A stretch of 62,412 nt of DNA, filler included. It is 4 parts of 4 records of this genome, joined end to end, with 100 filler letters (N's around TTAATTAATTAA, not from the genome) between each part and the next. Parts side by side here need not be neighbours in the genome. Positions count along the whole stretch, not along the records: positions 17,709 to 38,471 come from DRR723986_5071; 3 more parts are not named here. One strand, 5' to 3'. The notes under the pieces were generated by a model, which worked only from the letters and a program-made list of their open reading frames with translations, made no database searches and was not told where the DNA came from. Made by a program: the position numbers and the translations under genes. Shown here one piece after another: positions 17,609 to 42,942 of this stretch (within the stretch, counting starts at the first letter, position 1; each line of letters begins with the position of its first letter).

Positions 17609-17708
17609 NNNNNNNNNNNNNNNNNNNNNNNNNNNNNNNNNNNNNNNNNNNNTTAATTAATTAANNNNNNNNNNNNNNNNNNNNNNNNNNNNNNNNNNNN
17701 NNNNNNNN
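17609..17708. other. Artificial contig linker
   Basis: N44-TTAATTAATTAA-N44 (stops in all six frames). Confidence 0.98.
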
Positions 17709-23441: not shown

Positions 23442-24379
23442 CTGATGCGATTGACCTGCTGCTGAACACGAGCCTCTGGGCGGCCGTCCTGCGCCTTGCC
23501 ACGCCGTTGATCTTCGGTGTCCTCGGGGCGCTGCTCTGCGAACGCTCGGGCGTTCTGAACCTCGGGATTGAAGGCATCATGACCATGGGCGCCATGAGCG
23601 GCTGGCTGGCCGTCTACATGGGCGCGCCGTTGCTGGTCGGGCTGATGGTGGCCGCCTTGTGTGGCGCTCTGATGGGGCTGCTGCACGCGGCGCTTACGGT
23701 GCCGCTTGGCCTGTCGCAGCATGTGTCGGGGCTTGGCATCACGCTCTTTGCCTCGTCGCTGGCCTATTACCTTTACCGGCTGATCGTGGTGGTGGGGGAA
23801 ACCCCGCCCGCGATCGAGGCGTTCCAGCCGCTGGACCTGCCCATCCTGTCGGACCTGCCGGTGATCGGACCGATCCTGTTTTCACAAAGCGTGCCGACCT
23901 ATCTGGCGCTGTTATCCGTTGCGGTCATGGCCTATGTGCTGGCGCGGACACCGCTTGGGCTGGCCATTCGCATGACCGGCGAGAACCCCCACGCGGTCGA
24001 GGCGCAGGGGCTGAACCCGATCCGCATCCGCATTGGCGCGGTGGTGGCGGGGTCCGCCTTGATGGCCGTTGGCGGGGCCTTCCTGACCACCGCGGCGTTC
24101 AACAGCTTTTTCCCCGGCATGGTGCAGGGACGCGGCTGGATCTGCATCGCGCTTGTGGTTTTCGCCAGTTGGCGGCCGGGCAAGGCGCTGGTGGGGGCGT
24201 TGCTGTTTGCGTTCTTCGACGCCTATCAGCTGCGCCTGCAAACCGCGATCGAGGGTGTGCCCTATCAGCTGTTCCTGATGGCGCCCTATGTGCTGTCGAT
24301 CGTGGCGCTGATCCTGGTCGCACGCCGGGCAGAAGTGCCGGCCGCCCTGATGGCGCCCTACCGGCGCGGTGAACGCTAA
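23438..24379 (+). CDS. Nucleoside-type ABC permease
   Basis: ERSGVLNLGIEG, GRGWICIALV; ATGA overlap with the previous gene. Confidence 0.9.
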   Translation: MTDAIDLLLNTSLWAAVLRLATPLIFGVLGALLCERSGVLNLGIEGIMTMGAMSGWLAVYMGAPLLVGLMVAALCGALMGLLHAALTVPLGLSQHVSGLGITLFASSLAYYLYRLIVVVGETPPAIEAFQPLDLPILSDLPVIGPILFSQSVPTYLALLSVAVMAYVLARTPLGLAIRMTGENPHAVEAQGLNPIRIRIGAVVAGSALMAVGGAFLTTAAFNSFFPGMVQGRGWICIALVVFASWRPGKALVGALLFAFFDAYQLRLQTAIEGVPYQLFLMAPYVLSIVALILVARRAEVPAALMAPYRRGER

Positions 24380-25047
24380 TCGCCGAAGCGCTCGTCCATG
24401 GCCACCATGGTGTGTTCCAAACCGCTGCGGATATGGGTTTCCAGAATGGCCTGCGCAGTGGCGGAATCGCGGGCAAGGGCGGCTTCGAACATCTGCCGAT
24501 GTTCACGCGCTGCGACATCGCCACGATAGGTCAGGACCAGCATCTGATAGCGCAGGTATTTGTCAAACAGCGTGGCGTGCAGGGACAGGAGGTTCTTCGA
24601 ATTGCACGCCTCGATCATCGCAAGGTGAAATTCCCAGTCGTAGCGCTTCCACTGTTCCTTGTTGGTTTCGTCCCCTGACATCATCTGCTTTTCCATCAGG
24701 TGCAGCTTGTGGTGGGCGGCTACCAGGTTGCCCTCCCAATCCGCATCGCCGTTTTCAATCGAGGCCTTGAGCGCGCTGCATTCCAGCAAAACCCGCAGAT
24801 CCGCGATCTCGATCAGATCTTCACGCGACACCGGCGTCACGAAGAACCCGCGCTGTTCTTCGGCGGCAACAAAGCCTTCGCTGGCCAGTCGGTTCAGCGT
24901 TTCGCGCAAGGTGGACACGCTGGCGGCATAGCGCGATTTCAGCGGCTCCAGCTTCAGCTTCGATCCCGGCGCCAAGCGTCCGAAAATGATATCGCGTTTG
25001 ATCGCGTCATAGGTGGTTGAGCCAACCGTGCTCAGGGACTTCACCAT
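24376..25047 (-). CDS. GntR/FCD-family transcriptional regulator
   Basis: HTH SVSTLRETLNRL, QRGFFV, FCD domain FH...H; ATG 25047 after GGAG. Confidence 0.92.
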   Translation of the reverse strand: MVKSLSTVGSTTYDAIKRDIIFGRLAPGSKLKLEPLKSRYAASVSTLRETLNRLASEGFVAAEEQRGFFVTPVSREDLIEIADLRVLLECSALKASIENGDADWEGNLVAAHHKLHLMEKQMMSGDETNKEQWKRYDWEFHLAMIEACNSKNLLSLHATLFDKYLRYQMLVLTYRGDVAAREHRQMFEAALARDSATAQAILETHIRSGLEHTMVAMDERFGD

Positions 25048-25138
25048 ACCGATCTCCTGCCCGGTATTCCATTGTATTGCCGACAAGTAGCAACTTGTCT
25101 GACCGGCTTCAATCTAGGAGCATTTTTTACGTTTTGCA

Positions 25139-25182
25139 AAATATCATATATTATTGATTTCATCTGCTAGTATGTCTATTGT
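25139..25182 (+). promoter_or_regulatory. Candidate operator AAATATCATATATT next to a sigma70-type promoter
   Basis: Dyad AATAT-CAT-ATATT, then TTGATT (25154)-N17-TATTGT (25177); same motif at 33259. Confidence 0.65.
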
Positions 25183-25308
25183 CGATTCGACAGATGAAGC
25201 CTGAGGCAAGACGACCTCATACCAGACCGGGACAGAACCGAACGTGACCAAGACGGCCCACACACAGACCATCTGCAACGGTTGCCCTGGCATCGGGCGT
25301 TCAAAGCC

Positions 25309-26385
25309 ATGAGCGCTTCGACACGTATCGCGATTGTCGGCGCGGGGCTGGTAGGACGGCGTCACGCAGAGGCCATCTGGCGCAACCCGCACGCAGATGT
25401 GTCTGCCATCGTCGACCCGAGTGACGAGGGCCGCCGGTTCGCGGCGGAACATGGCATTGCCTGCCACAGCAACCTCGCAGAGCTTTTTGCCACCGACCAT
25501 CCCGATGGGGTCATTCTGTCTACCCCGACGCCGCTGCACGTGGATCAGGGGTTGGACTGCGTCCGCAACCGCTGTGCCTTGCTGGTCGAGAAACCCATTT
25601 CGAACAGTGCTGAAGACGCGATGCAGCTGGTTCTTGCCGCCGAGCGTGCCAATGTACCGCTGTTGGTGGGCCATCACCGCCGCCATAATCCGCTTATCCA
25701 GAAGGCCAAGCAGATTATCGAGAGCGGGGCCGTCGGTGACATCCGCGCCGTGCATTCGCAGTGCTGGTTTTACAAGCCGGACCACTACTTTGACATCGCG
25801 CCGTGGCGCACCCAGAAGGGCGCCGGGCCGGTCTCGGTCAATCTTGTCCATGATGTCGACTTGCTACGCCATCTTTGTGGAGAGATCGTCAGCGTTCAGG
25901 CGCAAGTGGCACCCTCAAGCCGAGGGTTTGCCAATGAAGAGGTCGCAGGCGCAGTCTTGCGCTTTGACAATGGCGCAATCGGCACATTGACACTGTCTGA
26001 CGGGATCGTCGCTCCCTGGAGCTGGGAACTGACCGCGCGCGAACATCCGGTTTATCCCGCCACGTCCCAAAGTTGCTATCTCATCGGCGGCAGTGAGGCA
26101 TCGCTATCCCTGCCCGATTGCACGTTGTGGAACCAGAACGGCAAGCGGGACTGGTGGGAGCCGATCAACGCCACAACGATTGCGCGGCCGTCATCGGACC
26201 CGCTCGACAACCAGATCGCGCACTTCCTTTCGGTCATCGCGGAAGAGGCCGCACCGCTGGTATCAGGCCGGGAAGGCACCAAAACACTCAGCGTGATAGA
26301 AGCGATCCAGAAATCCGCACGGACCGGACAGGCGGAAACACCGCTGAATTTCGAAGACGCACCCTCGGTCGAGGTGGCGATATGA
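25309..26385 (+). CDS. Gfo/Idh/MocA-family NAD(P) oxidoreductase
   Basis: GAGLVG, LVEKP, VGHHRRHNP, HDVD. Confidence 0.92.
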   Translation: MSASTRIAIVGAGLVGRRHAEAIWRNPHADVSAIVDPSDEGRRFAAEHGIACHSNLAELFATDHPDGVILSTPTPLHVDQGLDCVRNRCALLVEKPISNSAEDAMQLVLAAERANVPLLVGHHRRHNPLIQKAKQIIESGAVGDIRAVHSQCWFYKPDHYFDIAPWRTQKGAGPVSVNLVHDVDLLRHLCGEIVSVQAQVAPSSRGFANEEVAGAVLRFDNGAIGTLTLSDGIVAPWSWELTAREHPVYPATSQSCYLIGGSEASLSLPDCTLWNQNGKRDWWEPINATTIARPSSDPLDNQIAHFLSVIAEEAAPLVSGREGTKTLSVIEAIQKSARTGQAETPLNFEDAPSVEVAI

Positions 26386-26506: not shown

Positions 26507-27520
26507 ATGAAACTGAACATCACACGCAGAGCCGCCATGTCGGCAACCCTTGCAGCGGGCCTTCTGGCCAGCGTCTCGGGCGCCGCCTTCGCAGATGGCC
26601 ACATGATCCAGCTGCGGCTGTCCATGTCCGGGTCGGAAACCGATCAGCGTTCCGTGGCCATGGCAGAAGTCTTCGGTCCCGCCGTGTCCGGATTCGCCAG
26701 CTACGAACCGGCCTATAACGCGACGCTCTTCGCGCAGGGCACCGAACTGGAAGCCATCAGCCGGGGCAACCTTGAAATGTCGATCACCTCGGCCCAGGAA
26801 CTGGCGCAGTTCTTCCCCGAGTTCTCGATCTTCACCGCGGGCTATGTCCATCAGAACGCAGCCCATCAGGTTGCCGTCTTCAACGATCCGCTGTTTGAGC
26901 CGTTCAACCAGCGGGTGATCGACGATCTTGGCGTCCGCCTGCTGTCGGTCATGTATCTGGGCCGTCGTCAGGTGAACCTGCGCCAGACCCGCGAAGAGCT
27001 GGAGGTGATGACCCCCGCCGATCTGGCCGGTGTGAACCTGCGGATGCCGGGCACCGACGCATGGCAGTTCCTGGGCCGCGCCCTGGGGGCCAGCCCGACG
27101 CCGATGTCCTTCAGCGAGGTCTATACCGCTCTGTCGACCGGCGCTGTTGACGGGCAGGATAACCCGCTGCCGACCGTTGTCGATGCGCGCTTCTACGAAG
27201 TGACCAACCAGATCGTTCTGACCTCGCATCTTGTGGACCTGAACTATATCGCCATTTCCGAAGCTGTCTGGCAGAGCATGGATGCCGACCAGCAGGCGAT
27301 TGTGCAGCAAGCGGCAGATGACGCAGCCGAACTTGGCCGCCAGCGTCAGCTGCAACTGGAGGACGAACTTGTCGCCTTCCTCGAAGAGCAGGGTATGGAA
27401 GTCTACGAGCCCGATCTGGCCGCCTTCCGCAATCAGGTGCAGGCGATGTATCTTGAGAGCGAATTCGCCGAGACCTGGCCCGAAGGCGTACTTGAACAGA
27501 TCAACGCGCTCGGCAACTGA
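26507..27520 (+). CDS. dctP: TRAP transporter solute-binding protein (DctP)
   Basis: Signal peptide, NLRMPG, FSEVYTALSTGAVDGQDNP. Confidence 0.92.
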   Translation: MKLNITRRAAMSATLAAGLLASVSGAAFADGHMIQLRLSMSGSETDQRSVAMAEVFGPAVSGFASYEPAYNATLFAQGTELEAISRGNLEMSITSAQELAQFFPEFSIFTAGYVHQNAAHQVAVFNDPLFEPFNQRVIDDLGVRLLSVMYLGRRQVNLRQTREELEVMTPADLAGVNLRMPGTDAWQFLGRALGASPTPMSFSEVYTALSTGAVDGQDNPLPTVVDARFYEVTNQIVLTSHLVDLNYIAISEAVWQSMDADQQAIVQQAADDAAELGRQRQLQLEDELVAFLEEQGMEVYEPDLAAFRNQVQAMYLESEFAETWPEGVLEQINALGN

Positions 27521-27555: not shown

Positions 27556-28119
27556 ATGCTGGACAAACTTCGCAAGTGGTTCACCCACGGAACGGAATTC
27601 ATCGCCGCGATGATGCTCGCGGCGATGTTCCTGACCTTCCTGATTCAGATCTTTTCACGCTACGTGATGCAGGCCCCGTTCGGCTGGACGCTGGAATTGT
27701 GCCTGATCCTGTGGGTCTGGATCGTCTTCTTCGGCTGCGCCTTCATCGTGAAGGAGCGCGACCACGTTACGTTTGACATCTTTTACCTCTCAGGCGGGCG
27801 CAAGACACGTCAGGTTCTGGCGCTTGCTGCGGCTGCCGCCATCGTCATCGGCATGGGCATCTCGTTCCTGCCAACATGGGACTATATCGACTGGATGCGG
27901 ATGCGCCGCACCTCGACCTTGGAAAACCCATTTACCGGCGACCGTATCCCACTGCGCACGATCTTTTCCATCTATGCCATCTTTCTGATCGCGATCATCG
28001 CCCGCTATGCTTGGCGTTTCATCGACGTGCTGCGCAACGGCCCGCCCGACGATGACCACGAAATACCGGGGCACGATCCCGAGCCGCCGCACATCCGCCA
28101 TGGGGAGGACGCGACATGA
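27556..28119 (+). CDS. dctQ: TRAP small permease (DctQ)
   Basis: Four TM segments, WTLE, HVTFD. Confidence 0.9.
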   Translation: MLDKLRKWFTHGTEFIAAMMLAAMFLTFLIQIFSRYVMQAPFGWTLELCLILWVWIVFFGCAFIVKERDHVTFDIFYLSGGRKTRQVLALAAAAAIVIGMGISFLPTWDYIDWMRMRRTSTLENPFTGDRIPLRTIFSIYAIFLIAIIARYAWRFIDVLRNGPPDDDHEIPGHDPEPPHIRHGEDAT

Positions 28120-29405
28120 GCTTCGAGCTTGCCTCCTGCCTTGTCACCCTGTTCGTTCTTGCTGGCATCGGGACACCGATTGGCTATTCGATCATCCTCG
28201 CCTCGCTGGTCTATCTAGGCTTTTCCGGTCTCGATCTGGCTCTGGCCGGTGAAAAAATCCTGCAAGGGCTCTATCGCAGCTTCATCCTGCTGGCCGTGCC
28301 GCTGTTCATCGTCGCCGCCAATATCATGAATGCGGGCACGATCTCGGACCGGTTGTTGCAATTCTGCGTGGCGGCCGTGGGCCGGTTCCGGGGCGGCTTG
28401 GGCCATGTGAACGTAGTGGCGTCCCTGATCTTTTCCGGCATGTCCGGGTCAGCCGTCGCGGATGCCGCCGGCATTGGCAAAATCATCATCCAGATGATGA
28501 CCAAGGGCGGGCGCTATGCGCCGGGCTATGCCGCCGCGATCACCGCTGCCTCTGCCACCATCGGGCCGATCATTCCGCCCTCGATTCCCATGGTGCTCTA
28601 TGCGCTGGTGTCGAATTCCTCCATCGGGGCGCTGTTTCTGGCTGGCATCGTGCCGGGCCTGATCATGGGCGTCGTGCTGATGGCGATGAACTATTACATC
28701 TCGGCCAAGCGCGGCTTTGCACTGGAAGAACCGGTGCCGCTGAAGCAATTGCCCCGGCACACCGCCAATGCCTTCCCTGCCCTCTTGATGCCGGTCATCC
28801 TGCTCTATGGCATCTATGGCGGCGTCACGACACCGACCGAGGCCGCCGCCGTCGCCGCGCTGTACGCGCTGCTTCTGGCCGGGCTGTTCTACCGCGCCCT
28901 GTCGCTGCGCTCGCTCTATTCCATCTTCGTCGAAAGCGCCCGGTCCTCTGCCGCAGTGGGCCTAGTGATTGGCGGCGCGCTGATCCTGAACTTCGTGGTG
29001 GTGTCGGAAAACATCCCGGCCATGGTTGCGACGTCTCTGGTCGGGATCGACATTCATCCGCTGGTGTTCCTGCTGATGGTCAATCTGCTGATCCTCGGCC
29101 TTGGCTGTGTGCTGGACGCCACGACGATCATCCTAGTGATTGTGCCGCTGTTCATCCCCACCTGCCGAGAGCTTGGGATCGACCTGGTGCATTTCGGGGT
29201 TCTGGTTGTGGTGAACTCGATGATCGGGCTGATCACGCCGCCCTATGGGATCCTGCTGTTCGTGATCAATGCGGTGACGGGTATTCCACTGAAAGAGATC
29301 ATCGGGGAAATCTGGGCGTTTCTTGCGGTTCTGATTGGTGCCCTTCTGTTGTTGATCATGTTCCCTGATCTCGTGCTCTTCCTGCCAAGGCTTCTTGGCT
29401 TCTGA
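28116..29405 (+). CDS. dctM: TRAP large permease (DctM)
   Basis: SGSAVAD, IIPPSIP, TPTEA, ITPPYG. Confidence 0.95.
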   Translation: MSFELASCLVTLFVLAGIGTPIGYSIILASLVYLGFSGLDLALAGEKILQGLYRSFILLAVPLFIVAANIMNAGTISDRLLQFCVAAVGRFRGGLGHVNVVASLIFSGMSGSAVADAAGIGKIIIQMMTKGGRYAPGYAAAITAASATIGPIIPPSIPMVLYALVSNSSIGALFLAGIVPGLIMGVVLMAMNYYISAKRGFALEEPVPLKQLPRHTANAFPALLMPVILLYGIYGGVTTPTEAAAVAALYALLLAGLFYRALSLRSLYSIFVESARSSAAVGLVIGGALILNFVVVSENIPAMVATSLVGIDIHPLVFLLMVNLLILGLGCVLDATTIILVIVPLFIPTCRELGIDLVHFGVLVVVNSMIGLITPPYGILLFVINAVTGIPLKEIIGEIWAFLAVLIGALLLLIMFPDLVLFLPRLLGF

Positions 29406-29423: not shown

Positions 29424-31316
29424 ATGCCGCTTTCCATCGCCACCTCTGCCGTGCCGGGTGACTTGCCGCAGAAGCTGGAGGCCATTGCTGCGGCCGGTTT
29501 CGCGGGCGTTGATCTGGCCGAAGCGGATTTCACCGGGTTCGACGGCACCGCCAGCGATCTGGCAGAGGTTGTTGCCGGGCACGGGCTGATCCTGACGGCG
29601 CTCAGCCCTTTCGACGGGCTGGACGGGTTACAGGGACCGGACCGCGCCCGCGCCTTTGATCGGCTTGAACGGGTGTTCGACCGGATGGAGATGCTGGGAA
29701 CCGGCCTGTTGGTTCTGCGCGCCTCGTCCCACCCCGAGGCTGATCCAAAGCGCGACAGGGTGCAGGAGGATCTGAGCGAGCTTGCCACCCGCGCCAAGGC
29801 GCGCAAGCTTCGGGTCGCCTATCAAGCGCTGCCCTGGGCGCGCACACTGACACGCGAAACCGATGCCGCCGAGGTGATTGCAGAGATCGGCAACCCGGCG
29901 CTCGGGCTTGGCCTGAACAGCCTCTATTCACTTGCCGATGGCTCTCGTCCGGCGCGGCTTGGCGGAATTGAAGGCGATCAGATCTTTCACGTTCAGCTGT
30001 CGGACGCGCCCAGACTGGACATGGGGCTGCGCTATCTGGCGCACCACTATCAGATGCTGCCGGGTCAGGGAGATCTGAATCTTGCGGGCTTCGTTCGGGT
30101 GCTGGCGCGGGCGGGGTATGCTGGCCCTTGGTCAATGGACACCGCCAATGATTTAACCACCCGCAACGGCCCGATTGCCGTCGCTTCTGATGCCTATAGG
30201 GCGCTCGTCAACTTGCTGGACGAGGTCGAAGGCCCCGAACCGGGCATGGAATTTGACATTCCCGCCCTTCCCAAACGGGTTCGCGCAACGGGATTCGAAT
30301 TCATCGAGTTTGCCGCCGATGACCGCAACGCTGAAGACCTGCGCGCCACCCTGCGATCCATGCGGTTCCGGCGTGAACGCAAGCACCGGACCAAATCGGT
30401 CGAGCTGTGGCGCCAAGGCGCGGTGAACATTGTCATCAACACCGAACAAAGCGGTTTCGCCCATTCCGCCTTTCTCGCCCATGGCCCCACCGTCTGTGAC
30501 ATGGGCCTGCGCGTGGAGGATGCGGCGATGACCGCCAAACGTGCCACCGGACTTGGCGGAGCGCTGTTTTCGCAACCCGTCGGGGCGGGAGAACTGGATA
30601 TTCCGGCGGTGCGCGGTGTCGGCGGTAACGTGGTGCATTTCATCGACGAAAAGTCCGACCTTCACCGGGTCTGGGACATCGAATTTCTGCCCGCTACGCG
30701 GACAGAGGCCACCCAACCCGCCGGTCTTCGGCGGATCGATCATTTGGCTCAGACCATGCGTCACGAGGATATGCAAAGCTGGCTTTTGTTCTATCTCTCG
30801 ACCTTCGAGATGCAGAAATCTGCAGTCGTAGATGTGCACGACCCCGCCGGTCACGTCCATTCGCAGGCGATCCAGACACCCGAGGGCGAAATACGGCTCA
30901 ACCTGAACGGCACGGAGCCGGGAAAGACCGTTGCAGGGGCCTTCATCGCCGACAAGTTCGGGGCCGGTGTGCAGCATATCGCGCTGCTGAGCGACGATAT
31001 TTTTGAAACGTCGGATCTTTTGGCAACGTCCGGGTTTCAGCGGTTGACCATCCCCGCCAACTACTATGCCCATATCCAGTCGAAATACGATCTGAACGAA
31101 GATCTGGTGGCCCGCATGCAGGCGGGAAACATCCTTTATGCCCGAAATGACGGGGGCGAGTATTTTCAGATCTACAGCCTGCCGATCCTTGGCGGATTCT
31201 TCTTCGAGATCGTCGAACGGCGCAATGGCTATGCGGGCTATGGCGCCAGAAACGCCCCCGTGCGCATCGCCGCACAAAGCCGTCTGCTGCGCCCTGCCGG
31301 GATGCCGCTACGATGA
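29424..31316 (+). CDS. QuiC-like TIM-barrel/HPPD-like fusion with degenerate dehydroshikimate-dehydratase site
   Basis: QuiC architecture; HPPD-like half keeps IDH, VQH, FFE; N-domain has YQALPW, LNSLY, SMD where the family has YEALAW, LDSFH, SLE. Confidence 0.85.
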   Translation: MPLSIATSAVPGDLPQKLEAIAAAGFAGVDLAEADFTGFDGTASDLAEVVAGHGLILTALSPFDGLDGLQGPDRARAFDRLERVFDRMEMLGTGLLVLRASSHPEADPKRDRVQEDLSELATRAKARKLRVAYQALPWARTLTRETDAAEVIAEIGNPALGLGLNSLYSLADGSRPARLGGIEGDQIFHVQLSDAPRLDMGLRYLAHHYQMLPGQGDLNLAGFVRVLARAGYAGPWSMDTANDLTTRNGPIAVASDAYRALVNLLDEVEGPEPGMEFDIPALPKRVRATGFEFIEFAADDRNAEDLRATLRSMRFRRERKHRTKSVELWRQGAVNIVINTEQSGFAHSAFLAHGPTVCDMGLRVEDAAMTAKRATGLGGALFSQPVGAGELDIPAVRGVGGNVVHFIDEKSDLHRVWDIEFLPATRTEATQPAGLRRIDHLAQTMRHEDMQSWLLFYLSTFEMQKSAVVDVHDPAGHVHSQAIQTPEGEIRLNLNGTEPGKTVAGAFIADKFGAGVQHIALLSDDIFETSDLLATSGFQRLTIPANYYAHIQSKYDLNEDLVARMQAGNILYARNDGGEYFQIYSLPILGGFFFEIVERRNGYAGYGARNAPVRIAAQSRLLRPAGMPLR

Positions 31317-32206
31317 CCCAGAAGAAAACCATGACGGCCGGGTTGATCGGGCATGGGATCGCCGGGTCGCTCACGCCTTCGATGCACGAGGCCGAAGGGC
31401 GCGCGCATGGCCTCGACTATCGCTATACCCGGCTGGACACCGCCCTGCCCCCTTATCGCGGTCAAAGCCTTGCCCAAATGCTGGATGAGGCTGAACGCGC
31501 CGGTTTCCGGGGCCTGAACATCACCCACCCGTTCAAGGTTCAGGTTCTGCCCCTGCTGGACCAGCTATCGCCAGAAGCCAAGGCCATCGGCGCGGTGAAT
31601 ACGGTTCGGTTCCATGATGGTCAGCGTATCGGACACAACACCGACATTGGCGGCTTCACCACCGCCTTTCGCACGGCGCTGCCGGGTGTGGGCATGGATC
31701 ACGTTCTGTTGCTTGGGGCCGGCGGCGCGGGCGCTGCGGTGGCCCATGCGCTGATTGCGCTTGGCGCGCGGGCGCTGTCGGTGATCAGCAAGGATTCCGA
31801 ACAGACGCGGGGATTGCTGGAAACGCTCGGCGTACTTTACCCCGGTTGTCACCTGCGGGCGTTGAACGGGCTGGACAAGGCAGCGGTGCAGGACGTGCAG
31901 GGTGTGGTCAATGCAACCCCGATGGGAATGGATGCCTATCCCGGCACGGCCATTGACGCAGATCTGCTACGCCCTGACATGTGGGTGTCGGATATAGTAT
32001 ATTTTCCGCTGGAAACTGAGCTATTACGGAAAGCACAAGCCACCCGGTGCCGGACCATGTCCGGGGCTGGAATGGCCATTCATCAGGCCGCTCTGGCCTT
32101 TCAGATCATCACCGGGCGCACGGCAGATGCCAACCGCCTGAGCGCCGAATTCGACAGGCTGACAACGCCTGACCCGATCAAAACAGCATCGTCAGGATAC
32201 CCTTAG
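31313..32206 (+). CDS. aroE: Shikimate/quinate dehydrogenase (AroE family)
   Basis: SLTP, NITHPFK, GAVNT, GHNTD, GAGGAG, DIVY. Confidence 0.9.
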   Translation: MTQKKTMTAGLIGHGIAGSLTPSMHEAEGRAHGLDYRYTRLDTALPPYRGQSLAQMLDEAERAGFRGLNITHPFKVQVLPLLDQLSPEAKAIGAVNTVRFHDGQRIGHNTDIGGFTTAFRTALPGVGMDHVLLLGAGGAGAAVAHALIALGARALSVISKDSEQTRGLLETLGVLYPGCHLRALNGLDKAAVQDVQGVVNATPMGMDAYPGTAIDADLLRPDMWVSDIVYFPLETELLRKAQATRCRTMSGAGMAIHQAALAFQIITGRTADANRLSAEFDRLTTPDPIKTASSGYP

Positions 32207-33019
32207 ATGAGCGACGCAGAAGAGATCCGCCATTGGTGGCGCACTTCCATCATCGACATGGAACCCGGCAAGATCGCCTTTCGCGGTCATCCGATCCAAG
32301 AGCTGATCGGCGCGGTCAGTTTTCCGCAGATGATCTGGCTGATGGTCCGTGGCGATCTGCCCTCGAAACAACAAGCGGCGCTGTTTGAATGCGCGCTTGT
32401 GGCTGGCGTCGATCACGGCCCGCAAGCCCCGTCCATCGCGGCGGCGCGCATGGCGGCGACTTGTGGTGTGGGGCTGAACAACGTGATGGCCACGGGCGTC
32501 AACATGCTGGGTGATGTGCATGGTGGCGCGGGTGAACAATGCGCTGAACTGTACTATGACATCGCCGCCCGGATGGATGATGGCGTGCCTCTTGATCAGG
32601 CGGTGCGCGACGGGCTGGACGCGTGGCGGGCGGAATACGGCAAGATCGTCTCGGGCTTTGGCCACCGCTTTCACAAACCGGTCGATCCGCGCGCGCCCCG
32701 GCTGATGGGTCTTGTCCGGGACGCAGCCCGCGACGGCACGGTAGCGGGTCGGTTCGCGACCATCGGCGAGGCCGTTCAGGACGAACTTGGGCGCCAGCGC
32801 GGCGGACGGCCGATCGCGATGAATATCGACGGGGCCACGGCGGTGATCTTCTGCGAGCTTGGCTTCCCCCCACCCCTGTCACGCGGGCTGTTCTGCCTGT
32901 CGCGGTCCGTCGGTGTGCTGGCCCATGGCTGGGAACAGATGCAGCAGGGTGGCCGCAACAAGGGCCCGATGCCGCCGAAATATCTGCCCGAATACGAGCC
33001 CAAGGGCGACCCCAGCTAA
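32207..33019 (+). CDS. Citryl-CoA lyase (citrate synthase-like family)
   Basis: 270 aa; WRTSI, DHG, VHGGAG, GFGHRFH, DPR, NID, LSR. Confidence 0.85.
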   Translation: MSDAEEIRHWWRTSIIDMEPGKIAFRGHPIQELIGAVSFPQMIWLMVRGDLPSKQQAALFECALVAGVDHGPQAPSIAAARMAATCGVGLNNVMATGVNMLGDVHGGAGEQCAELYYDIAARMDDGVPLDQAVRDGLDAWRAEYGKIVSGFGHRFHKPVDPRAPRLMGLVRDAARDGTVAGRFATIGEAVQDELGRQRGGRPIAMNIDGATAVIFCELGFPPPLSRGLFCLSRSVGVLAHGWEQMQQGGRNKGPMPPKYLPEYEPKGDPS

Positions 33020-33327: not shown

Positions 33328-34251
33328 ATGGCGAAGACCGATGACCCCCATCTGCACCAGCCGCTCTATTCGCTGGCCCATCTGACGCTGATCGACTGTT
33401 CAGCACCCGAGTTGATCTATATCGCGGCCCGCGCCGGCTATGACGCGGTCAGTCCCCGCTTCATCCCAATGCATGTGCCCGGAGAATTCGCGAACCGCCC
33501 GGACGACAAGCCGTTAGTCGCGGCCACCAAGATGGCGTTGAAGACGACGGGGCTGACCGTTCTGGACATGGAACTGGCCCGGATCACCGAGGATTGCGAT
33601 CCGAAAAGCTTTGAACCCTCGTTGGAACTGGGGGGCGAACTGGGCGCAAAGCGCCTGATCATGAGCGCCTGGACAAACGACCGGAACGACCGGAATTTCC
33701 TTGTCGATTGCTATGGCGAGACCTGTGACATCGCCGCCCAATACGGGCTGACCGTCGATCTGGAATTTCCCTCCTTTTCCCGGCTGAGAACATTGGACGA
33801 AGCGCTCGATATCGTGCGCGCGGCCGATCGGCCCAATGGCGGCATCCTTGTCGATACGCTCTACCTGCATCTCAGCCGCGTCGATATCGGCGAGCTTCTG
33901 CATGTGCCAAGCGAGCTGCTGCATTTCCTCCACATCTCTGACTGTCTGCCCGGCATCGCCGACACCCGCGCGGGGATGATCCAATTGGCCCGCGACGCGC
34001 GGCTTTACCCCGGCGAGGGCTGGATCGACTTCACCGGCATCATCGAGCGGATGCCGCCGGTCGATTACTCCATCGAACTGCCCAATCAGAGCCGCGTGGC
34101 CGAGCTTGGTCTCGAAGAACACGCCCGCCGCTGCCTGATCCAGGCAAAACGCACCTTCGGGGCGGCGCGATCCAAGCGCCTGCACCCCGATCCTGTTCCG
34201 GCGCAAGCCAACACACTCAATGAGGGCCAACATGGGCAAAGACCTAACTGA
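33328..34251 (+). CDS. Sugar-phosphate isomerase/epimerase (IolE/xylose-isomerase-like TIM barrel)
   Basis: SLAHLT, VDLEFP, LVDTL, LHISD, RLYPGEG, SIELP. Confidence 0.88.
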   Translation: MAKTDDPHLHQPLYSLAHLTLIDCSAPELIYIAARAGYDAVSPRFIPMHVPGEFANRPDDKPLVAATKMALKTTGLTVLDMELARITEDCDPKSFEPSLELGGELGAKRLIMSAWTNDRNDRNFLVDCYGETCDIAAQYGLTVDLEFPSFSRLRTLDEALDIVRAADRPNGGILVDTLYLHLSRVDIGELLHVPSELLHFLHISDCLPGIADTRAGMIQLARDARLYPGEGWIDFTGIIERMPPVDYSIELPNQSRVAELGLEEHARRCLIQAKRTFGAARSKRLHPDPVPAQANTLNEGQHGQRPN

Positions 34252-35641
34252 AGACGATCGCCAACTTGTTGCCGACATGCTTGCGCGGGCCCGTGCAGCG
34301 ATGGCAGAGATCGAAGACTGGAGCCAGACCGATCTGGACCGTCTCAGCCAAGCGATTGCATGGTATGCGGGCAATGAGGCCACATTCACCCGGCTGGCAC
34401 AGCAGGGCGTGGATGAAAGCGGGATTGGCGACCGGGATGGCCGCCCCGCCAAGCGCTTCAAGATCCACATGGTGCTGCGCGACGTGCTGCGCACGCCTTC
34501 GACCGGTGTGGTCGAGGTCGACGAAATGCGTGGGCTGGTGAAATACGCCAAACCCGCCGGGGTGATCGCCTCGCTTATCCCGATGACCAACCCGGCGATG
34601 ACCCCGCCAGTAACCGGCGTATCCGCCGCCAATGCGCGCAATGCCGTCATTTTCAGCCCCCACCCGCGCACCGCGCAGACAACATATGAAATGGTCGAGG
34701 TGATGCGCGCGGCCTGCCGGGCCGTGGGCGCACCCGAGGATCTGTTCCAGTCGATCCGCAAGCCCTCCATCCCCATGACGCAGCACCTGATGGAAGTCTG
34801 CGACCTGACCCTTGCCACCGGCGGCAAACCAATGGTGAAGGCCGCCTATTCCTCTGGCCGTCCGGCCTATGGCGTGGGGGCGGGGAATTCATCCATCGTT
34901 ATCGACGACACGGCGGATATCGAGATTGCGGCTGCGAATACGCGGATATCCAAGACCTCCGACTTTGGATCCGGCTGTTCGGCGGATGGCAACATCATCA
35001 TCCAGCGCTCGATCTATGACGCGATGGTCAAGGCGTTGCAGGCCGAGGGCGGCTATCTGTGCAGCACAGAAGAAAAGGCGATGCTGGAGGCCGCCATGTG
35101 GGACGAAAAGGGCAACCGCACCTTCCCCACAATCGCCTGCCGTCCGCAGCAGACCGCCGAGGTGGCGGGGTTCACAATCCCTGAGGATCGCAAGTTCCTG
35201 ATGGTCGAAAACCAGGGCCAGATCGGGCCGGAGCACAAGTTCAGCAAGGAAAAGCTCACCACCCTGATGGCGCTTTACCATTTCGAAACCTTCGATGACG
35301 CTCTGGAAACGGTCCGCCAGATCTACGACACAGGCGGCAAGGGCCATTCTTGCGGCATCTACAGCCACAATGATGAAAATATCGACCGGCTGGCCCGTCT
35401 GGCCCCGGTCAGCCGCATGATGGTGCGCCAACCCCAGTCCAAGGCCAATGCGGGTGCGTGGACCAACGGGATGCCGATGACCTCCAGCCTTGGGTGCGGG
35501 ATCTGGGGCGGCAACATCACCAATGAGAACGTCACAATGAAACACATGATGAACTACACCTGGGTCAGCCGCCCGATCCCCGAGGATCGCCCCTCTGAAG
35601 AGGAGCTGTTCGGTGAGTTCTTCGGACAGGAGGTGGCGTGA
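34232..35641 (+). CDS. CoA-acylating aldehyde dehydrogenase (SauS/SucD/AdhE-N-like)
   Basis: PMTNP, ATGG, GVGAGN, SKTSDFGSGCS, EKL, GHS, LGCGIWGGN. Confidence 0.88.
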   Translation: MGKDLTEDDRQLVADMLARARAAMAEIEDWSQTDLDRLSQAIAWYAGNEATFTRLAQQGVDESGIGDRDGRPAKRFKIHMVLRDVLRTPSTGVVEVDEMRGLVKYAKPAGVIASLIPMTNPAMTPPVTGVSAANARNAVIFSPHPRTAQTTYEMVEVMRAACRAVGAPEDLFQSIRKPSIPMTQHLMEVCDLTLATGGKPMVKAAYSSGRPAYGVGAGNSSIVIDDTADIEIAAANTRISKTSDFGSGCSADGNIIIQRSIYDAMVKALQAEGGYLCSTEEKAMLEAAMWDEKGNRTFPTIACRPQQTAEVAGFTIPEDRKFLMVENQGQIGPEHKFSKEKLTTLMALYHFETFDDALETVRQIYDTGGKGHSCGIYSHNDENIDRLARLAPVSRMMVRQPQSKANAGAWTNGMPMTSSLGCGIWGGNITNENVTMKHMMNYTWVSRPIPEDRPSEEELFGEFFGQEVA

Positions 35642-37422
35642 TGGACGGCGCAGCAGTGCAGGACAAAACCGTCGCGGAACATATCGTCGAATTCCTCGAA
35701 CGACGCGAGGTGCGCCATGTGTTCGGCCTGTGCGGTCACACCAATATTGCGGTGCTGGCGGCGCTGGCAGACAGCCCCATCGACTTCGTCACCGTGCGCC
35801 ACGAACAGATCGCCAGCCACGCGGCGGATGCCTATGCGAGGGTGACCGGCAAGACCTCGGTGGTGCTGTCGCACCTGTCGCCGGGGTTGACCAACTGCGC
35901 CACCGGGGTCGCCAATGCGGCGCTTGATTGCATTCCAATGGTGGTGATCGCAGGCGATATCCCGACGCATTACTACGGCAAGCACCCGCATCAGGAGGTC
36001 AACCTGCACGCAGACGCCGCCCAGTGGGAGATCTACCGCCCCTTCGTCAAACGCGCTTGGCGTGTTGACCGCGCCGACCTGATGGCGGAGATCCTTGAAA
36101 AGGCGTTTCATCTGGCCGAAAGCGGCCAGCCCGGCCCGGTGCTGGTCAACGTCCCGATGGACATCTTCAGCCAGCGCATCCCGGCAGACAGTTTCGAGCG
36201 GATCAGGGACAACACCCGCGCTCTGGTGAAGCCCTCGCTCGACGATGAAACAGCGCGCCAGATCGTTGAACGGTTGGCCAAGGCCGAGAGCCCCGTGGCC
36301 TATGTGGGCGGCGGCATCCTGTTGGCAAAAGCGTCGGAAGAGTTGCGCGCGTTCGTGGACCATATGGGCCTGCCCGTGGCGCATAGCCTGATGGGCAAGG
36401 GCGCGTTGCGCGATGATCACCCGCTGGTCATGGGCATGACGGGGTTCTGGGGAACGAAGCTGGTCAACCAATCCTGTCTGAATGCCGATTATGTCTTTGC
36501 CGTAGGCACACGCTTCAAGGAGGCCGACTGTTCCAGCTGGTATCCCGGCTATACCTTCAACATCCCCGGATCGAAGGTCATCCATATCGACATCGAACCG
36601 CAGGAAATCGGCCGCAACTACCCGACCGAGATCGGCGTTGTGGCGGATGCCAAGGCGGCGCTTCGCGTCCTGACCCGGGTTGCGAAAGAGATGTATCCGG
36701 ATGGGTTCGACCGCTCGGAAAAGAAGACAGAGATTGCCGATTTCCGCACCGCTTTCAGAGCATCAAACGCAGAGATGCAAAGCTCGCCCGCCTTCCCGAT
36801 GATGCCCGAGCGCATCCTGGCCGACACCCGCAAGGCGCTGCCGGAGGACGCGATTATCACCACCGATGTGGGTTGGAACAAGAACGGCGTGGGCCAGCAG
36901 TTCGATATTCTCACTCCGGGGTCAATCCTGACACCGGGCGGCTTTGCCACCATGGGCTTTGGCCCTCCGGCTGCCATTGGCGCCAAGCTCGCCGCGCCGG
37001 ACCGCGTGGTTCTCAGCCTCGTGGGCGATGGCGGGTTCGGGCAGAACCCGTCGATGCTGGCCACGGCGGTCGAGCTTGATCTGGGCATCATCTGGCTGGT
37101 GATGAACAACAACGCCTTTGGCACCATTGCCGGTCTGCAAAAGGCCCATTACGGGCTGACCTATGGCACCACCTTCCCCGGCACCGCAGCCGCGCCCACC
37201 AATGGGCCGGGCTATGCCGAGATTGCACGGGCCTACGGCGCGGAAGGGGTTCGGGTCAGCTCCGCCGATGAGCTGTTGCCGGCATTGCAGGCCGCCATTG
37301 CCAGCGGCAAACCGACGGTTCTGGATGTGGCGATGATCAACAATCCGACACCCACGACCGGGCATTGGAACATCCTAGATATCTATTCACCGGATAAGGA
37401 TGTCAGCCACGTGTCCACCTGA
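35638..37422 (+). CDS. ThDP-dependent enzyme (acetolactate synthase-like fold), substrate unknown
   Basis: VFGLCGH, RHEQ, TDVG, MGFG, GDGG...MNNN ThDP motif. Confidence 0.9.
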   Translation: MMDGAAVQDKTVAEHIVEFLERREVRHVFGLCGHTNIAVLAALADSPIDFVTVRHEQIASHAADAYARVTGKTSVVLSHLSPGLTNCATGVANAALDCIPMVVIAGDIPTHYYGKHPHQEVNLHADAAQWEIYRPFVKRAWRVDRADLMAEILEKAFHLAESGQPGPVLVNVPMDIFSQRIPADSFERIRDNTRALVKPSLDDETARQIVERLAKAESPVAYVGGGILLAKASEELRAFVDHMGLPVAHSLMGKGALRDDHPLVMGMTGFWGTKLVNQSCLNADYVFAVGTRFKEADCSSWYPGYTFNIPGSKVIHIDIEPQEIGRNYPTEIGVVADAKAALRVLTRVAKEMYPDGFDRSEKKTEIADFRTAFRASNAEMQSSPAFPMMPERILADTRKALPEDAIITTDVGWNKNGVGQQFDILTPGSILTPGGFATMGFGPPAAIGAKLAAPDRVVLSLVGDGGFGQNPSMLATAVELDLGIIWLVMNNNAFGTIAGLQKAHYGLTYGTTFPGTAAAPTNGPGYAEIARAYGAEGVRVSSADELLPALQAAIASGKPTVLDVAMINNPTPTTGHWNILDIYSPDKDVSHVST

Positions 37423-37482: not shown

Positions 37483-37929
37483 TCAGGGCTTGGCTGTCAG
37501 CATCTCGCACAAATGGCGCACGGCCAGCGTATAGCCATTGACGCCAAATCCCATCAGAACCGCATCCGCCCGCAAGCCAACATAAGACGTGTGGCGAAAG
37601 CTCTCGCGTTTGTGGATCTGGCTGACATGGACCTCGACCACAGGGCCATCAAAAGTGTTGAGTGCATCCAGAATGGCAATCGAGGTATGGGTGTAGGCCC
37701 CGGCATTCAGCACAATCGCGGCAGCTTTTTCACGCGCCTCGTGAATCCAGTCGACTAGTTGACCTTCATGGTTCGACTGCATCTGCACAACCGCAACCCC
37801 AAAGCTTTCCGCCTCGGCCGCGCAATTGCGTTCCACATCCGCCAAGGTGTCATGGCCGTAAAGCTCCGGCTGACGCTGGCCCAGAAGGTTAAGGTTCGGG
37901 CCGTTCAGGATGTAGATAGTCTGGCTCAT
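37483..37929 (-). CDS. aroQ: Type II 3-dehydroquinate dehydratase
   Basis: [43 protein letters not shown] 37929. Confidence 0.96.
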
Positions 37930-38018
37930 ATCGGGTCTTTCCGGGGCATGAGGGGCGGCGTTCGCCATCTAATGGCAGCGAAACCGCGCTGTATCAAGCT
38001 TTTGCACCCTGCCCCGAC

Positions 38019-38396
38019 CTAGAACGAGGCTTCTTCCTCATACTTCGCCAGCTCTTCTTCAAGGATCGGGGTGGACATGGTCATGGCGTGGATTCCCATG
38101 ATGGTCGTCAGCTGGATCACTTCCATGATCTCATCGCGCGTGGCACCTGCGCGCAAGGCATTCTGGATATGGCGCCGCACGCCCGGTGCCCAAAGATGCG
38201 TGGTCGCCGCGTTGATCGCGATAAAGATCAGCTCCTTGTATTTCTGCTCCAGCGGTCCGTGGTTCTGCGGCACCGATCTGAAATGCAGAAAGCCCTCCAG
38301 ATATTCCGGGTCCATCTCGGCCATCTTGTCCCAGACCGGGTTCCAGTCATCGGATTGCCGCTGCGCTTCGGTATAGGGATACGTTTTGTCGGTCAT
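38019..38396 (-). CDS. Carboxymuconolactone decarboxylase/AhpD-like (CMD) family protein
   Basis: KYKELIFIA, HIQNALRAGATRDEIMEV; no CxxC. Confidence 0.82.
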   Translation of the reverse strand: MTDKTYPYTEAQRQSDDWNPVWDKMAEMDPEYLEGFLHFRSVPQNHGPLEQKYKELIFIAINAATTHLWAPGVRRHIQNALRAGATRDEIMEVIQLTTIMGIHAMTMSTPILEEELAKYEEEASF

Positions 38397-38471: not shown

Positions 38472-38571
38472 NNNNNNNNNNNNNNNNNNNNNNNNNNNNN
38501 NNNNNNNNNNNNNNNTTAATTAATTAANNNNNNNNNNNNNNNNNNNNNNNNNNNNNNNNNNNNNNNNNNNN
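38472..38571. other. Artificial contig linker
   Basis: N44-TTAATTAATTAA-N44. Confidence 0.98.
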
Positions 38572-39519
38572 GCGCGGGGTGGTCTGGTAGTGCCACTTGA
38601 TGTCACCTGTTGTGGGGTCGATCCCGATGCGGCTGGCCGCGTACAGGTTGTCACCCGCATTGCCATCAACGGGCGTACCTGCGTTGCGCAGGTGGCTGTT
38701 CCACGGGGCAGGGTTCCCGGCGCCAAATACCAGCGTATCGGTATCTGCATCATAGGAACCGCCAAGCCACGTCGCACCGCCGCCGGTTTTCCACATGTCA
38801 CCGGGCCACGTCGCGTTCAGCTCGCCGGTCATGGTGCTTTCTTCGCCGTTCAAAGTGCCCATGTGACCTTCGATTACGGGACGGGTCCAAACCATTTCAC
38901 CGGTTTCCGCATCCCGGGCCTGAACCTCGCCTACGATCCCGAATTCACCGCCAGAGTTGCCGGTGATGACCAAGCCGTTCACGATCAGGGGGGCGGCGGT
39001 ATAGGAATAGCCCGCTTTATAGTCAGCAATTTTCTTTCGCCATTTGACGTCGCCGGTTTTCAGATCCAGCGCAACAATGCGCGCGTCCAATGTTCCGAAA
39101 AAGAACGTGTCGCCATAGATTGCGCCGCCCCGATTGATGACGTCACAGCAGGGGAGAATGCCCTCGGGCAGGCGGGCATCGTACTGCCACAGCTCTTTGC
39201 CAGATTTGACATCAATCGCGTAAACGCGGCTGTATGACCCGGTGATATACATCACGCCGTCATAAATCAGCGGTTGTGTTTCCTGGCCACGTTGCTTTTC
39301 CCCACCGAGTGAGAACGCCCATGCAGGGACCAGATTTTTGACGTTGTCTTTGTTGAGGGTGTCCAGCGGGCTGTACCGCTGTAGGTGGCGCCCCATGCCG
39401 TTGGTGACAATCTGTGTGGTGATAGATTGATCGTTTTTCAAATCGTCTTCGGTGACGCCAGCATGGCCTGGACCCGCCAGCATCAAACCCGCGACAACCG
39501 CTGTGATAAACCGGTTCAT
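38572..39519 (-). CDS. PQQ-dependent alcohol dehydrogenase, ExaF/PedH-like, 3'-truncated
   Basis: Signal peptide, [49 protein letters not shown] then gap. Confidence 0.92.
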
Positions 39520-39619
39520 AAGATTCCTCCCAAGTTTCTCCAATCGAGACCGGTGCCCTCTTAATACGTGCGGGTTGTCCGGCTGTGCATAGTATTGGCG
39601 AGCGAGGCCGTGACGGAAA

Positions 39620-39635
39620 TTGCACAAAGGTCGTA
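39620..39635. promoter_or_regulatory. 16-bp palindrome site 1 (upstream of PQQ-ADH)
   Basis: TTGCACAAAGGTCGTA vs consensus TACGACYWWRGTCGTA. Confidence 0.5.
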
Positions 39636-39746
39636 GATTTAAGCCTTTGATATGGCTTGGAACGGGTCAGAAACGCAAAAAAACCCGGTAACACAGGCTA
39701 CCGGGCTTACAGTTTTAGGGCGAACATTGACCCGCCCTCAGGGAGT

Positions 39747-40163
39747 TTAGTCAGAGATGGCGCTGCCATCGCGGTCAGTAATCGAGGCAAGGTAGCTCAG
39801 CACAAAGTCTTGGACTGTTGGGTCCTGAATGCCGACATGGCGCATTTTTGTGCCGGGCATAAAGCCATCGTTGTCTTCCATCCAGGCGCGCAGGGCTGCG
39901 GGGGTCCAGACAATGCCAGACGCGGCCAGGGCAATGGAAAAATCATAATCTGGGTAGGTCCCGGCAGCGCGGCCAACAATGTTTTTCAACGGGGGGCCAT
40001 AGCTGTCGTCGGTTGATCTGTCCGTATGGCAGCGCCGGCATTTGGCGTCATAGACGGCTTTGCCAGCGTCGACTTTGATCCGGTCATATATGCTTTCTTC
40101 GCTGGCACCTGCGGGCAGACCCGCCGAGAGTGCCAGACAGATGGCTGGGATGATCCGTTTCAT
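39747..40163 (-). CDS. Class I cytochrome c (c2-like)
   Basis: Signal peptide, CRRCH, YGPPL, MPGTKM; ATG 40163 after GGAGG. Confidence 0.92.
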   Translation of the reverse strand: MKRIIPAICLALSAGLPAGASEESIYDRIKVDAGKAVYDAKCRRCHTDRSTDDSYGPPLKNIVGRAAGTYPDYDFSIALAASGIVWTPAALRAWMEDNDGFMPGTKMRHVGIQDPTVQDFVLSYLASITDRDGSAISD

Positions 40164-40251
40164 GTGGTCCTCCGAGAATAAGATCACCCAGAGGATACAA
40201 TAAATGGGTCGCGAGTTCATTGAAATAATCAGTAATTACAATGTGTTCGGC

Positions 40252-40267
40252 CTATACTTTAGTCGTA
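40252..40267. promoter_or_regulatory. 16-bp palindrome site 2 (upstream of cytochrome c)
   Basis: CTATACTTTAGTCGTA. Confidence 0.45.
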
Positions 40268-40292
40268 AGTTTCACCTTGAGACTAGGGGAAT

Positions 40293-40874
40293 CTAGAACA
40301 AAGGTGCATATTTCCAATTATCAGCATCTGGGGTGACCTCGTCTGGATCATACCCCGCTGCTTGCAACCGCTTGGCAACTTTCAAGCCATCTGATGCCGC
40401 TTCGTCTATCAAGGCGCGGCCGCGGATCTCATCCCTGACCACACCATGTCCGCGCAACATGTTCAGGCCATAATTAAACTTGCCAACCGGGTCACCGGCT
40501 TCGGCGGCGCGCCGATCCCATTCGGCGGCGGCATCCGGGTTATAGGCCGCGCCCAACCCGTTGTTATCCATCTGCCCCATCCAGGTCATTGCGCCGGTCC
40601 AACCCGCGTTGGCGCAGCTTTCAAACAGCTTGCGTGCCATTTCATGACGTCCAGATTTGGTAATGTAATATCCGGCAGCGCAGGTGGTCATGTCTGTGAT
40701 GCCTTTGTCGAGATTGCTCATTACGTGGCCAAACCCGCTGTCTTGCGGGTTGAGCGTCCCATATTCATCCTCCACGGTGACCGTGTCTGCCATGGCTGGC
40801 AAAGTACCAAGTAGAACCAAAATTGCTGTTGCGCGTAATATAACGGATCCTCCTGTTGGCAAAGAAGATAGCAC
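40293..40874 (-). CDS. Exported Sel1-repeat protein
   Basis: Signal peptide; AAEWDRRAAEAGDPVGKFNYGLNMLRGHGV; start uncertain. Confidence 0.8.
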   Translation of the reverse strand: MLSSLPTGGSVILRATAILVLLGTLPAMADTVTVEDEYGTLNPQDSGFGHVMSNLDKGITDMTTCAAGYYITKSGRHEMARKLFESCANAGWTGAMTWMGQMDNNGLGAAYNPDAAAEWDRRAAEAGDPVGKFNYGLNMLRGHGVVRDEIRGRALIDEAASDGLKVAKRLQAAGYDPDEVTPDADNWKYAPLF

Positions 40875-40930
40875 AGGCAGGCAAGGTTTTCACCGGTGTC
40901 ATGGTCGTAGAGAGGTTTGCGAAGGTCACC

Positions 40931-42441: not shown

Positions 42442-42899
42442 TTGATGGTGATCTCCAGCCTTTGGGTTTCACCCGTCGAGCCGGGAACCTTCATGTAATA
42501 GCTGCCTGGTTTGATGGCGACAAATCCGATTTCCATCTCACCGGCTTCATCAAATTCGATGCTGTCCAGGCCGAGCGGGCGAATTTCCAAGCCCTCGACA
42601 ACAATCTCGTCGATCCAAATCGCACGAAAGAATTCAGGCCCGATCAAGGCCAGTTCCTGACTTCCGTCCCCCTGGATTTCGAATTCATAATACGTGCCTG
42701 ACTTTAATACCCACGGAGCGGCAGCCAAAGGTTCACCGGCCGACAGGATGACGGGCGGCAAATCTTCTTTGTTCGAACCTGACAAAAGCCCCGCCAGACC
42801 AAATTCGGGCCCATCGTCATCGTCAGCCTGCGCGATTGCAGGCACCGTCAAAGCCAGAGTGGCACCAAAGATTGTGCTCAGGATGGTCAGTTTGTTCAT
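42438..42899 (-). CDS. Exported acidic protein, possibly cupredoxin-like fold without copper ligands
   Basis: Signal peptide, DDDD, PEFFRAIWIDE, FVAIKPGSY; no His or Cys; ATG 42899 after GAGG. Confidence 0.75.
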   Translation of the reverse strand: MNKLTILSTIFGATLALTVPAIAQADDDDGPEFGLAGLLSGSNKEDLPPVILSAGEPLAAAPWVLKSGTYYEFEIQGDGSQELALIGPEFFRAIWIDEIVVEGLEIRPLGLDSIEFDEAGEMEIGFVAIKPGSYYMKVPGSTGETQRLEITIK

Positions 42900-42942
42900 T
42901 TTGAACCTCTTGAAAAAATGGTCTGCCGTTTGACCCCGCAGG

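Follow-up and report, generated by a model that had tools for sequence, protein, structure and literature searches.

What does a QuiC protein do once its dehydratase site has gone? The question is raised by a 630-aa reading frame in a 62,412-nucleotide stretch of DNA (hereafter the window), which consists of four parts separated by runs of N at 17609-17708, 38472-38571 and 56996-57095. The predicted protein has the architecture of QuiC1 from P. putida and of QsuB, an AP_endonuc_2 TIM barrel followed by a C-terminal HPPD-like (VOC) domain (Table 1). In the accessible portions of the literature, the HPPD-like half of QuiC1/QsuB is said to have no known role (PMC7442255), and for this half of QuiC-type enzymes only a structural role is proposed (PMC9324987).

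A phmmer alignment with QuiC1 (PDB 5HMQ; E 8.5e-123) ran without gaps over query residues 2-240 at a steady two-residue offset, and an AlphaFold model of the protein (pLDDT 90.2) superposed on the same structure with a TM score of 0.90. Because the alignment is gap-free at a fixed offset, residue numbers correspond to those of the QuiC1/QsuB dehydratase site, given in the accessible part of its source as R64, L97, E134, L136, D165, H168, Q191, S206, R210 and E239 (PMC7442255). The register assumed in the first-pass annotation stands, and the alternative is ruled out. The metal ligands E134/D165/Q191/E239 read Q134 (CAA, 29823), N165 (AAC, 29916), Q191 (CAG, 29994) and D239 (GAC, 30138), and the site residues R64, H168, S206 and R210 read D64, Y168 (TAT, 29925), A206 and Q210 (CAG, 30051), so that neither set is that of QuiC1/QsuB. 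L97V is a further change; L136, Q191 and D194 are unchanged. The first-pass annotation had reported an intact 630-aa frame, the codons at 134, 165, 168, 191, 210 and 239, and the alteration of three of the four ligands (E134Q, D165N, E239D) together with the histidine (H168Y), and was right on each of these points; it overlooked R64D and S206A, and listed R210Q without reading it as a loss. The protein scored 464.8 bits against NCBIfam NF042435 (cut-off 1200), a comparison in which no intact alphaproteobacterial QuiC was scored alongside. To judge from the alignment and model, the metal carboxylates, H168 and the two arginines are gone from the barrel, which nevertheless still folds and remains under moderate constraint.

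The C-terminal domain has kept the His/His/Glu triad claimed for it, H440 (CAT, 30741), H518 (CAT, 30975) and E595 (GAG, 31206), and S480, N493, N495, Q517, Q582, N610 and R614 are invariant in the clade described below. Position 503 is V in the window protein and F, L or I in relatives, and it aligns to a Gln of the HPPD 1CJX; because this Gln is missing, HPPD activity of the domain is unlikely. As far as sequence comparison can tell, the domain keeps a 2-His-1-Glu site and its second shell at enzyme-level constraint. Our verdict is that the protein lies outside both the active dehydroshikimate dehydratase (DSD) and the HPPD families.

From 110 relatives identified by a genome scan we kept the best 80, which come mainly from marine Rhodobacteraceae and also from Roseibium, Rhizobiaceae, Puniceispirillum and Arenicellales. 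Among those of the best 80 that cover the position, E134 occurs in 0 of 78 loci, D165, H168 and E239 each in 0 of 79, R210 in 1 of 79 and R64 in 1 of 77; the commonest states are I/L/M134, F168, K206, G210 and A239. All 80 carry H440/H518/E595, and all 80 carry S480, N495, Q517, Q582 and N610. The frame is open across the matched length in 80/80, with 78 copies full length and two ending at contig ends, and outside Nioella the N-domain is 35-57% identical to that of the window protein. A sub-clade of six loci (L103, L105, L170, L173, L175, L176) has lost about 45 aa of the barrel with the C-domain triad intact.

Because these 80 loci were selected by similarity to the query, we picked further loci through the neighbouring gene for a stand-alone TIM barrel, TIM2. 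Among 57 metagenome loci obtained in this way, 33 have a QuiC-like gene and 24 stop short of its place. Of 401 family-level genomes 25 matched, and the 17 besides G001 with a TIM2 of at least 75% identity have a QuiC-like gene within ~7 kb of it. E134, D165 and E239 are absent and the triad is kept in 33/33 metagenome and 17/17 genome copies. As background, the three carboxylates are jointly kept in 58 of 82 full-length representatives of a 50%-identity library, and in 9/9 intact QuiC from named plasmids; 47 of the 58 intact representatives retain the triad, and 11 have lost part of it. When ten related genomes were searched with an intact QuiC, all ten returned the degenerate copy alone, with or without an ordinary HPPD (separate in 7/10), and no intact paralog was found in any of the ten. 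Loss of the predicted dehydratase site is a trait of the whole clade, not chance. A second altered-site type of QuiC (L177, L179, P0037, P0052, P0053, P0099) has G/N165, H191 and mostly T/I206 and keeps E134, H168, R210 and E239; in G316 it follows genes for TIM2, an aldehyde dehydrogenase (ALDH) and a ThDP enzyme, with an HMGL-like lyase nearby.

In a midpoint-rooted tree of 53 selected C-domain sequences, the dead forms group together with support of 0.988. Their sister group comprises intact QuiC from TIM2-ALDH-ThDP clusters and two further degenerate proteins, and separate site losses occur elsewhere in the tree. Under the midpoint root, an intact QuiC would have entered the cluster and its site would have been lost afterwards.

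A comparison of dN/dS by domain had been suggested in the first-pass annotation. By the Nei-Gojobori method, over 23 close non-overlapping pairs that are not strictly independent, it came to 0.132 in the barrel against 0.053 in the C-domain, and the barrel was higher in 23/23 pairs. The C-domain value is comparable to those of the cluster core enzymes (0.034-0.065) and the barrel value to those of the shikimate dehydrogenase (SDH) and a cupin-like protein (0.12-0.14); the first, non-catalytic VOC half (aa 285-425) gave 0.044 and the second 0.060. In intact QuiC from Sinorhizobium, Sulfitobacter and Chelatococcus, N was lower than C in 4/4 non-overlapping pairs (N 0.02-0.17, C 0.07-0.24), a control of four pairs only, one with dS above 1 and so near saturation. 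Because both values are low and the six barrel deletions leave the triad in place, the gene is not decaying and the C-domain is its protected part. The earlier proposal of a dead dehydratase site with a retained C-domain is supported by the site loss and the C-domain value, and with both domains far under 1 simple decay is refuted.

The gene lies in a cluster (Table 1) whose members were typed at other loci by targeted tblastn and Pfam, some of the 80 loci ending early. The SDH gene start overlaps the QuiC stop codon. DctP is nearest to PDB 4PF6 (E 1e-149; next match 1e-40), whose ligand we take to be KDO, not quinate. The top folds for TIM2 are IolI, the best match, Lmo2234 and the QuiC1 barrel of 5HMQ (Z 29.4-30.6; next 26.1), and TIM2 is a candidate dehydroquinate 5-dehydratase or ketol isomerase. 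Lmo2234 is presumably the Listeria dehydratase QuiC2. Both QuiC2 and lmo2233 are named in the accessible part of a preprint (10.1101/2025.04.08.647683). AroQ also stands beside more distant clusters (L185/L195, L187). The sole candidates from a promoter and terminator scan were two divergent sigma-70-like sites at ~25126-25178, and complex prediction of the QuiC homolog with TIM2, run without alignments, scored 0.00 twice, which is evidence neither way.

Two extra Gfo genes and a cupin-like gene are inserted in 62-67 of the best 80 of 110 loci. The cupin-like protein, of ~220 aa and encoded between the extra Gfo genes (for example L062:13785-14525 (+) and L006:14594-15418 (+)), occurs in 63 of these 80 and is absent from the window; its reading frame had no Pfam or PDB sequence match, and its Atlas features matched clusters without a name, plus one in which 33% of members carry AUDH_Cupin. 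In the window, a carboxymuconolactone decarboxylase-family gene adjoins aroQ and accompanies the cluster only in the four Nioella loci. The N runs cut an amidohydrolase gene and a reading frame that by eye resembles a PQQ-dependent alcohol dehydrogenase; the latter begins an apparent PQQ alcohol-oxidation and PQQ-synthesis region (38524-53125) with genes for cytochrome c, beta-propeller, ApbE, lactamase-fold and radical SAM/SPASM proteins, for which pqq labels are putative.

Table 1. Features of the window discussed in the text. Locus counts refer to the best 80 of 110 relatives.
Feature	Position	Strand	Basis or occurrence
Amidohydrolase, cut by N run	17716-18495		
GntR/FCD regulator, divergent from cluster	24376-25086	-	72/80 loci
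Gfo/Idh/MocA NAD(P)-dependent dehydrogenase, candidate quinate dehydrogenase	25282-26385	+	70/80 loci
TRAP transporter DctP	26507-27520	+	71/80 loci
TRAP transporter DctQ	27556-28119	+	73/80 loci
TRAP transporter DctM	28116-29405	+	76/80 loci
QuiC homolog, whole frame (630 aa)	29424-31316	+	open throughout
QuiC homolog, N-terminal TIM barrel (aa 1-270), pseudo-dehydratase	29424-30233	+	alignment, model superposition, dN/dS 0.13
QuiC homolog, C-terminal HPPD-like (VOC) domain (aa 285-630)	30276-31316	+	H440/H518/E595 triad; dN/dS 0.053
Shikimate/quinate dehydrogenase, PRK12549 subfamily	31313-32206	+	365.9 bits, cut-off 235; 31/80 loci
Citryl-CoA lyase family, candidate homocitryl-CoA lyase	32207-33019	+	442 bits, cut-off 261; 79/80 loci
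TIM2, stand-alone TIM barrel	33328-34251	+	intact metal site E146, D176, H202, E250 and R225; 73/80 loci
CoA-acylating aldehyde dehydrogenase, SauS/AdhE/EutE-like	34220-35641	+	under curated cut-offs; 72/80 loci
ThDP-dependent enzyme, candidate 1,2-dione ring hydrolase	35638-37422	+	70/80 loci
Type II 3-dehydroquinate dehydratase AroQ	37483-37968	-	4/80 loci, all Nioella
Carboxymuconolactone decarboxylase family	38019-38396	-	
Reading frame cut by N run	38524-39627	-	

Clusters elsewhere vary in ways that bear on the role of the protein. In two genomes (G271, G789) the cluster is present and no QuiC/HPPD-like gene was found genome-wide, which makes the QuiC homolog accessory. In two others (G307, G464) the TIM2-ALDH-ThDP genes stand beside a fully intact QuiC, so that an intact dehydratase and this module are able to coexist. 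The G307 order (L185:1659-6586) runs TIM2-ALDH-ThDP-QuiC and then CoA transferase III, acyl-CoA dehydrogenase, MmgE/PrpD and a MaoC-type dehydratase, a set that replaces citryl-CoA lyase and suggests a different lower pathway. On a plasmid of Azoarcus KH32C (L091:9958-11661) QuiC is split and in reversed order, a C-half preceding a QuiC-N-like barrel with H168Q and E239D, and the pair precedes a CoA transferase, citryl-CoA lyase, ThDP enzyme, SDH and AroD. We considered the 274-aa C-half gene as an intact stand-alone C-domain and rejected it, as the alignment showed it to be truncated, without the second His and adjoining the barrel.

The lyase and ThDP module lies beside SDH and AroD in Azoarcus KH32C, beside SDH in the gammaproteobacterium G789 and one Streptomyces, and beside AroQ and SDH in G480; Rhodobacteraceae, too, have it next to SDH and/or a dehydroquinate dehydratase. 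Around intact QuiC, four annotated plasmid regions had adjacent pca genes in two cases and otherwise SDH, AroQ or transporters, and a lyase or ThDP gene in 0/4. No pca gene was found beside the degenerate QuiC in the window or at those loci for which pca queries were run. PcaH scored above cut-off in 16 of 27 cluster genomes, away from the degenerate QuiC, and LigA was present in 2 of the 11 lacking PcaH; in the other 9 of the 27, three of them essentially single-contig, neither was found.

The reading that we consider best overall, which we hold at a little short of even confidence, is that the protein is a fusion of a pseudo-dehydratase with a live VOC domain, accessory in a cluster for non-aromatic quinate/shikimate catabolism. 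Its parts differ in strength. The protein very probably has no dehydroshikimate (DHS)-to-protocatechuate activity; the cluster probably breaks down quinate or shikimate without aromatising them; and it seems rather likely that the C-domain works as an enzyme with Fe(II), Mn or Co. Several points speak against this best reading: the two clusters without the gene, the Azoarcus C-half without its second His, the intact QuiC of G307 and G464, the presence of PcaH in 16/27 genomes, the inactivity of the QsuB C-domain on protocatechuate together with its proposed part in oligomerisation, the kinship of DctP with 4PF6 and its presumed KDO ligand, and the occurrence of SDH at only 31 of the best 80 of 110 loci.

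We tentatively suggest, as the most economical scheme, that quinate is converted to acetyl-CoA and 2-oxoglutarate via homocitryl-CoA. Quinate would give 3-dehydroquinate through the Gfo protein or SDH, and AroQ would let shikimate or DHS enter at the same compound. TIM2 may then eliminate the 5-OH of 3-dehydroquinate to form a 3,4-dione, in effect the dehydratase reaction moved to dehydroquinate, with a product that would be unable simply to aromatise. Hydrolytic ring opening by the ThDP enzyme, a chemistry found in IolD and in cyclohexane-1,2-dione hydrolase, would yield homocitrate semialdehyde, which the acylating ALDH would convert to homocitryl-CoA for retro-Claisen cleavage to acetyl-CoA and 2-oxoglutarate by the citryl-CoA-lyase homolog. 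Because an active DHS dehydratase would drain such a route into protocatechuate, its loss might be tolerated or favoured. The scheme has no need of the QuiC homolog and two genomes do without it, so the C-domain is in our view an accessory metal enzyme, one that would most likely chelate a reactive alpha-dicarbonyl, enediol or 2-oxo-acid, either an intermediate or a side product of the route, and might remove it, in a side-branch or repair step, through tautomerisation or oxygenative cleavage, with the dead barrel serving as folding and oligomer scaffold. The fullest version of this idea is doubtful: that the HPPD-fold C-domain of QuiC uses Fe(II) to carry out a new reaction, its substrate being a cyclic 1,2-dione, an enediol or a 2-oxo-acid, as part of an undescribed marine non-aromatic quinate pathway ending in cleavage of homocitryl-CoA to acetyl-CoA and 2-oxoglutarate.

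Of the alternatives, the one that survives best, though we think it unlikely, is that both domains are non-catalytic and that the protein is an oligomer scaffold or a binding and channelling subunit among the cluster enzymes, its triad holding a structural metal. The accessible part of the QsuB study reports that the C-domain drives oligomerisation (PMC7442255), the first VOC half is as constrained as the second, and the protein is dispensable in two clusters. However, the triad and five second-shell residues are invariant at all of the best 80 of 110 loci, compared with the partial triad loss in 11/58 intact QuiC, and constraint on the C-domain is raised in the clade relative to intact QuiC.

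It is less probable that the cluster acts on another substrate, a ulosonic (2-oxo) acid such as KDO, or a cyclitol, with the HPPD-like domain oxidatively decarboxylating a 2-oxo-acid. The close relationship of DctP to 4PF6, the parallel of Gfo, TIM, ThDP and acylating ALDH genes with inositol catabolism, the IolI-like fold of TIM2 and the inserted Gfo and cupin genes would all fit. Nevertheless, SDH, AroQ/AroD and QuiC relatives recur by the module in distant lineages, and KDO may be a mimic, as it shares with quinate a ring carbon carrying OH and COOH.

A shade more improbable again, though compatible with the best reading, is a re-purposed barrel in which a metal-free ligand or regulatory pocket senses a carboxylate and gates the C-domain. 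H64, K206, R240, N165 and Q191 recur at 55, 66, 66, 76 and 79 of the best 80 of 110 loci, and the N-domain dN/dS of 0.13 is far under 1; yet D/E64, A206 and T240 occupy these positions in the window protein and in its four relatives from Nioella, and the barrel deletions fall in the same domain.

We regard as very improbable a still active DSD with a rebuilt site, or an HPPD. The window changes are conservative (E to Q, D to N, E to D), and no other QuiC was found in the ten relatives' genomes searched, but I/L/M134 and A239 prevail across the clade, and three acidic metal ligands are common to AsbF, QsuB and Qa-4 in the accessible part of PMC9324987. HPPD is contradicted by the missing Gln at V503, by a TIGR01263 score of 201.7 bits against a cut-off of 277 and by the separate ordinary HPPD of most relatives' genomes. 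Simple decay, a pseudogene-to-be riding along in the operon, is the least credible of all: the gene's absence from two clusters, the six deletions and the low N-domain identity outside Nioella are outweighed by the open frames, the dN/dS of 0.13 and 0.05, and its presence in 33/33 and 17/17 informative TIM2-picked loci.

In the literature searched, with most subscription papers outside reach, we found no description of a dead-barrel QuiC clade or of a non-aromatic route of this kind. Because nature has here removed the dehydratase half and protected the C-domain more strongly, the role of the C-domain becomes testable with a short list of substrates taken from the neighbouring genes. If the best reading is true, the protein would reveal an activity of the QuiC C-domain; the cluster indicates a candidate quinate route that bypasses protocatechuate, and mis-annotation as DSD or HPPD is flagged in many marine genomes.

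Among known systems, the closest are QuiC1 (5HMQ) and QsuB of Corynebacterium glutamicum, which share with the window protein the TIM barrel, the HPPD-like domain and the C-terminal His/His/Glu, and in the case of QuiC1 also the gap-free register, the fold and the length of 630 aa. The window protein differs from them in seven of the ten listed site residues, plus L97V, and the clade differs from intact QuiC in its reversed polarity of selection and in its neighbours, which are citryl-CoA lyase, a ThDP enzyme and an acylating ALDH where canonical QuiC has pca genes. For QsuB, the accessible part of the source reports no activity of the C-domain on protocatechuate, and its authors propose a role in oligomerisation (PMC7442255). 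With HPPD and hydroxymandelate synthase (VOC), the C-domain shares the fold, the 2-His-1-Glu triad and, on a motif-based mapping to Arabidopsis numbering, the second-shell Ser/Asn/Gln/Gln/Asn positions given in the accessible part of PMC6750108. It differs in its identity of ~31%, its fusion to a TIM barrel, the usual presence of a separate HPPD in the same genomes, and the Ser-Asn-Gln-Gln network, of which S480, N495 and Q517 are present and the Gln293-type residue is replaced by V503. Mutation of Gln293, taken here as position 503, lowered the efficiency of Arabidopsis HPPD ~3700-fold in that source (PMC6750108). The cluster as a whole has the same enzyme classes as myo-inositol catabolism (IolG, IolE/IolI, IolD, IolA) and cyclohexane-1,2-dione hydrolase, namely Gfo, TIM barrel, ThDP enzyme and acylating ALDH, although identities are low, IolG falls under cut-off and Cdh matches at E 1e-53, below acetolactate synthases. 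To this inositol-type set the cluster adds citryl-CoA lyase, SDH, AroQ and the degenerate QuiC.
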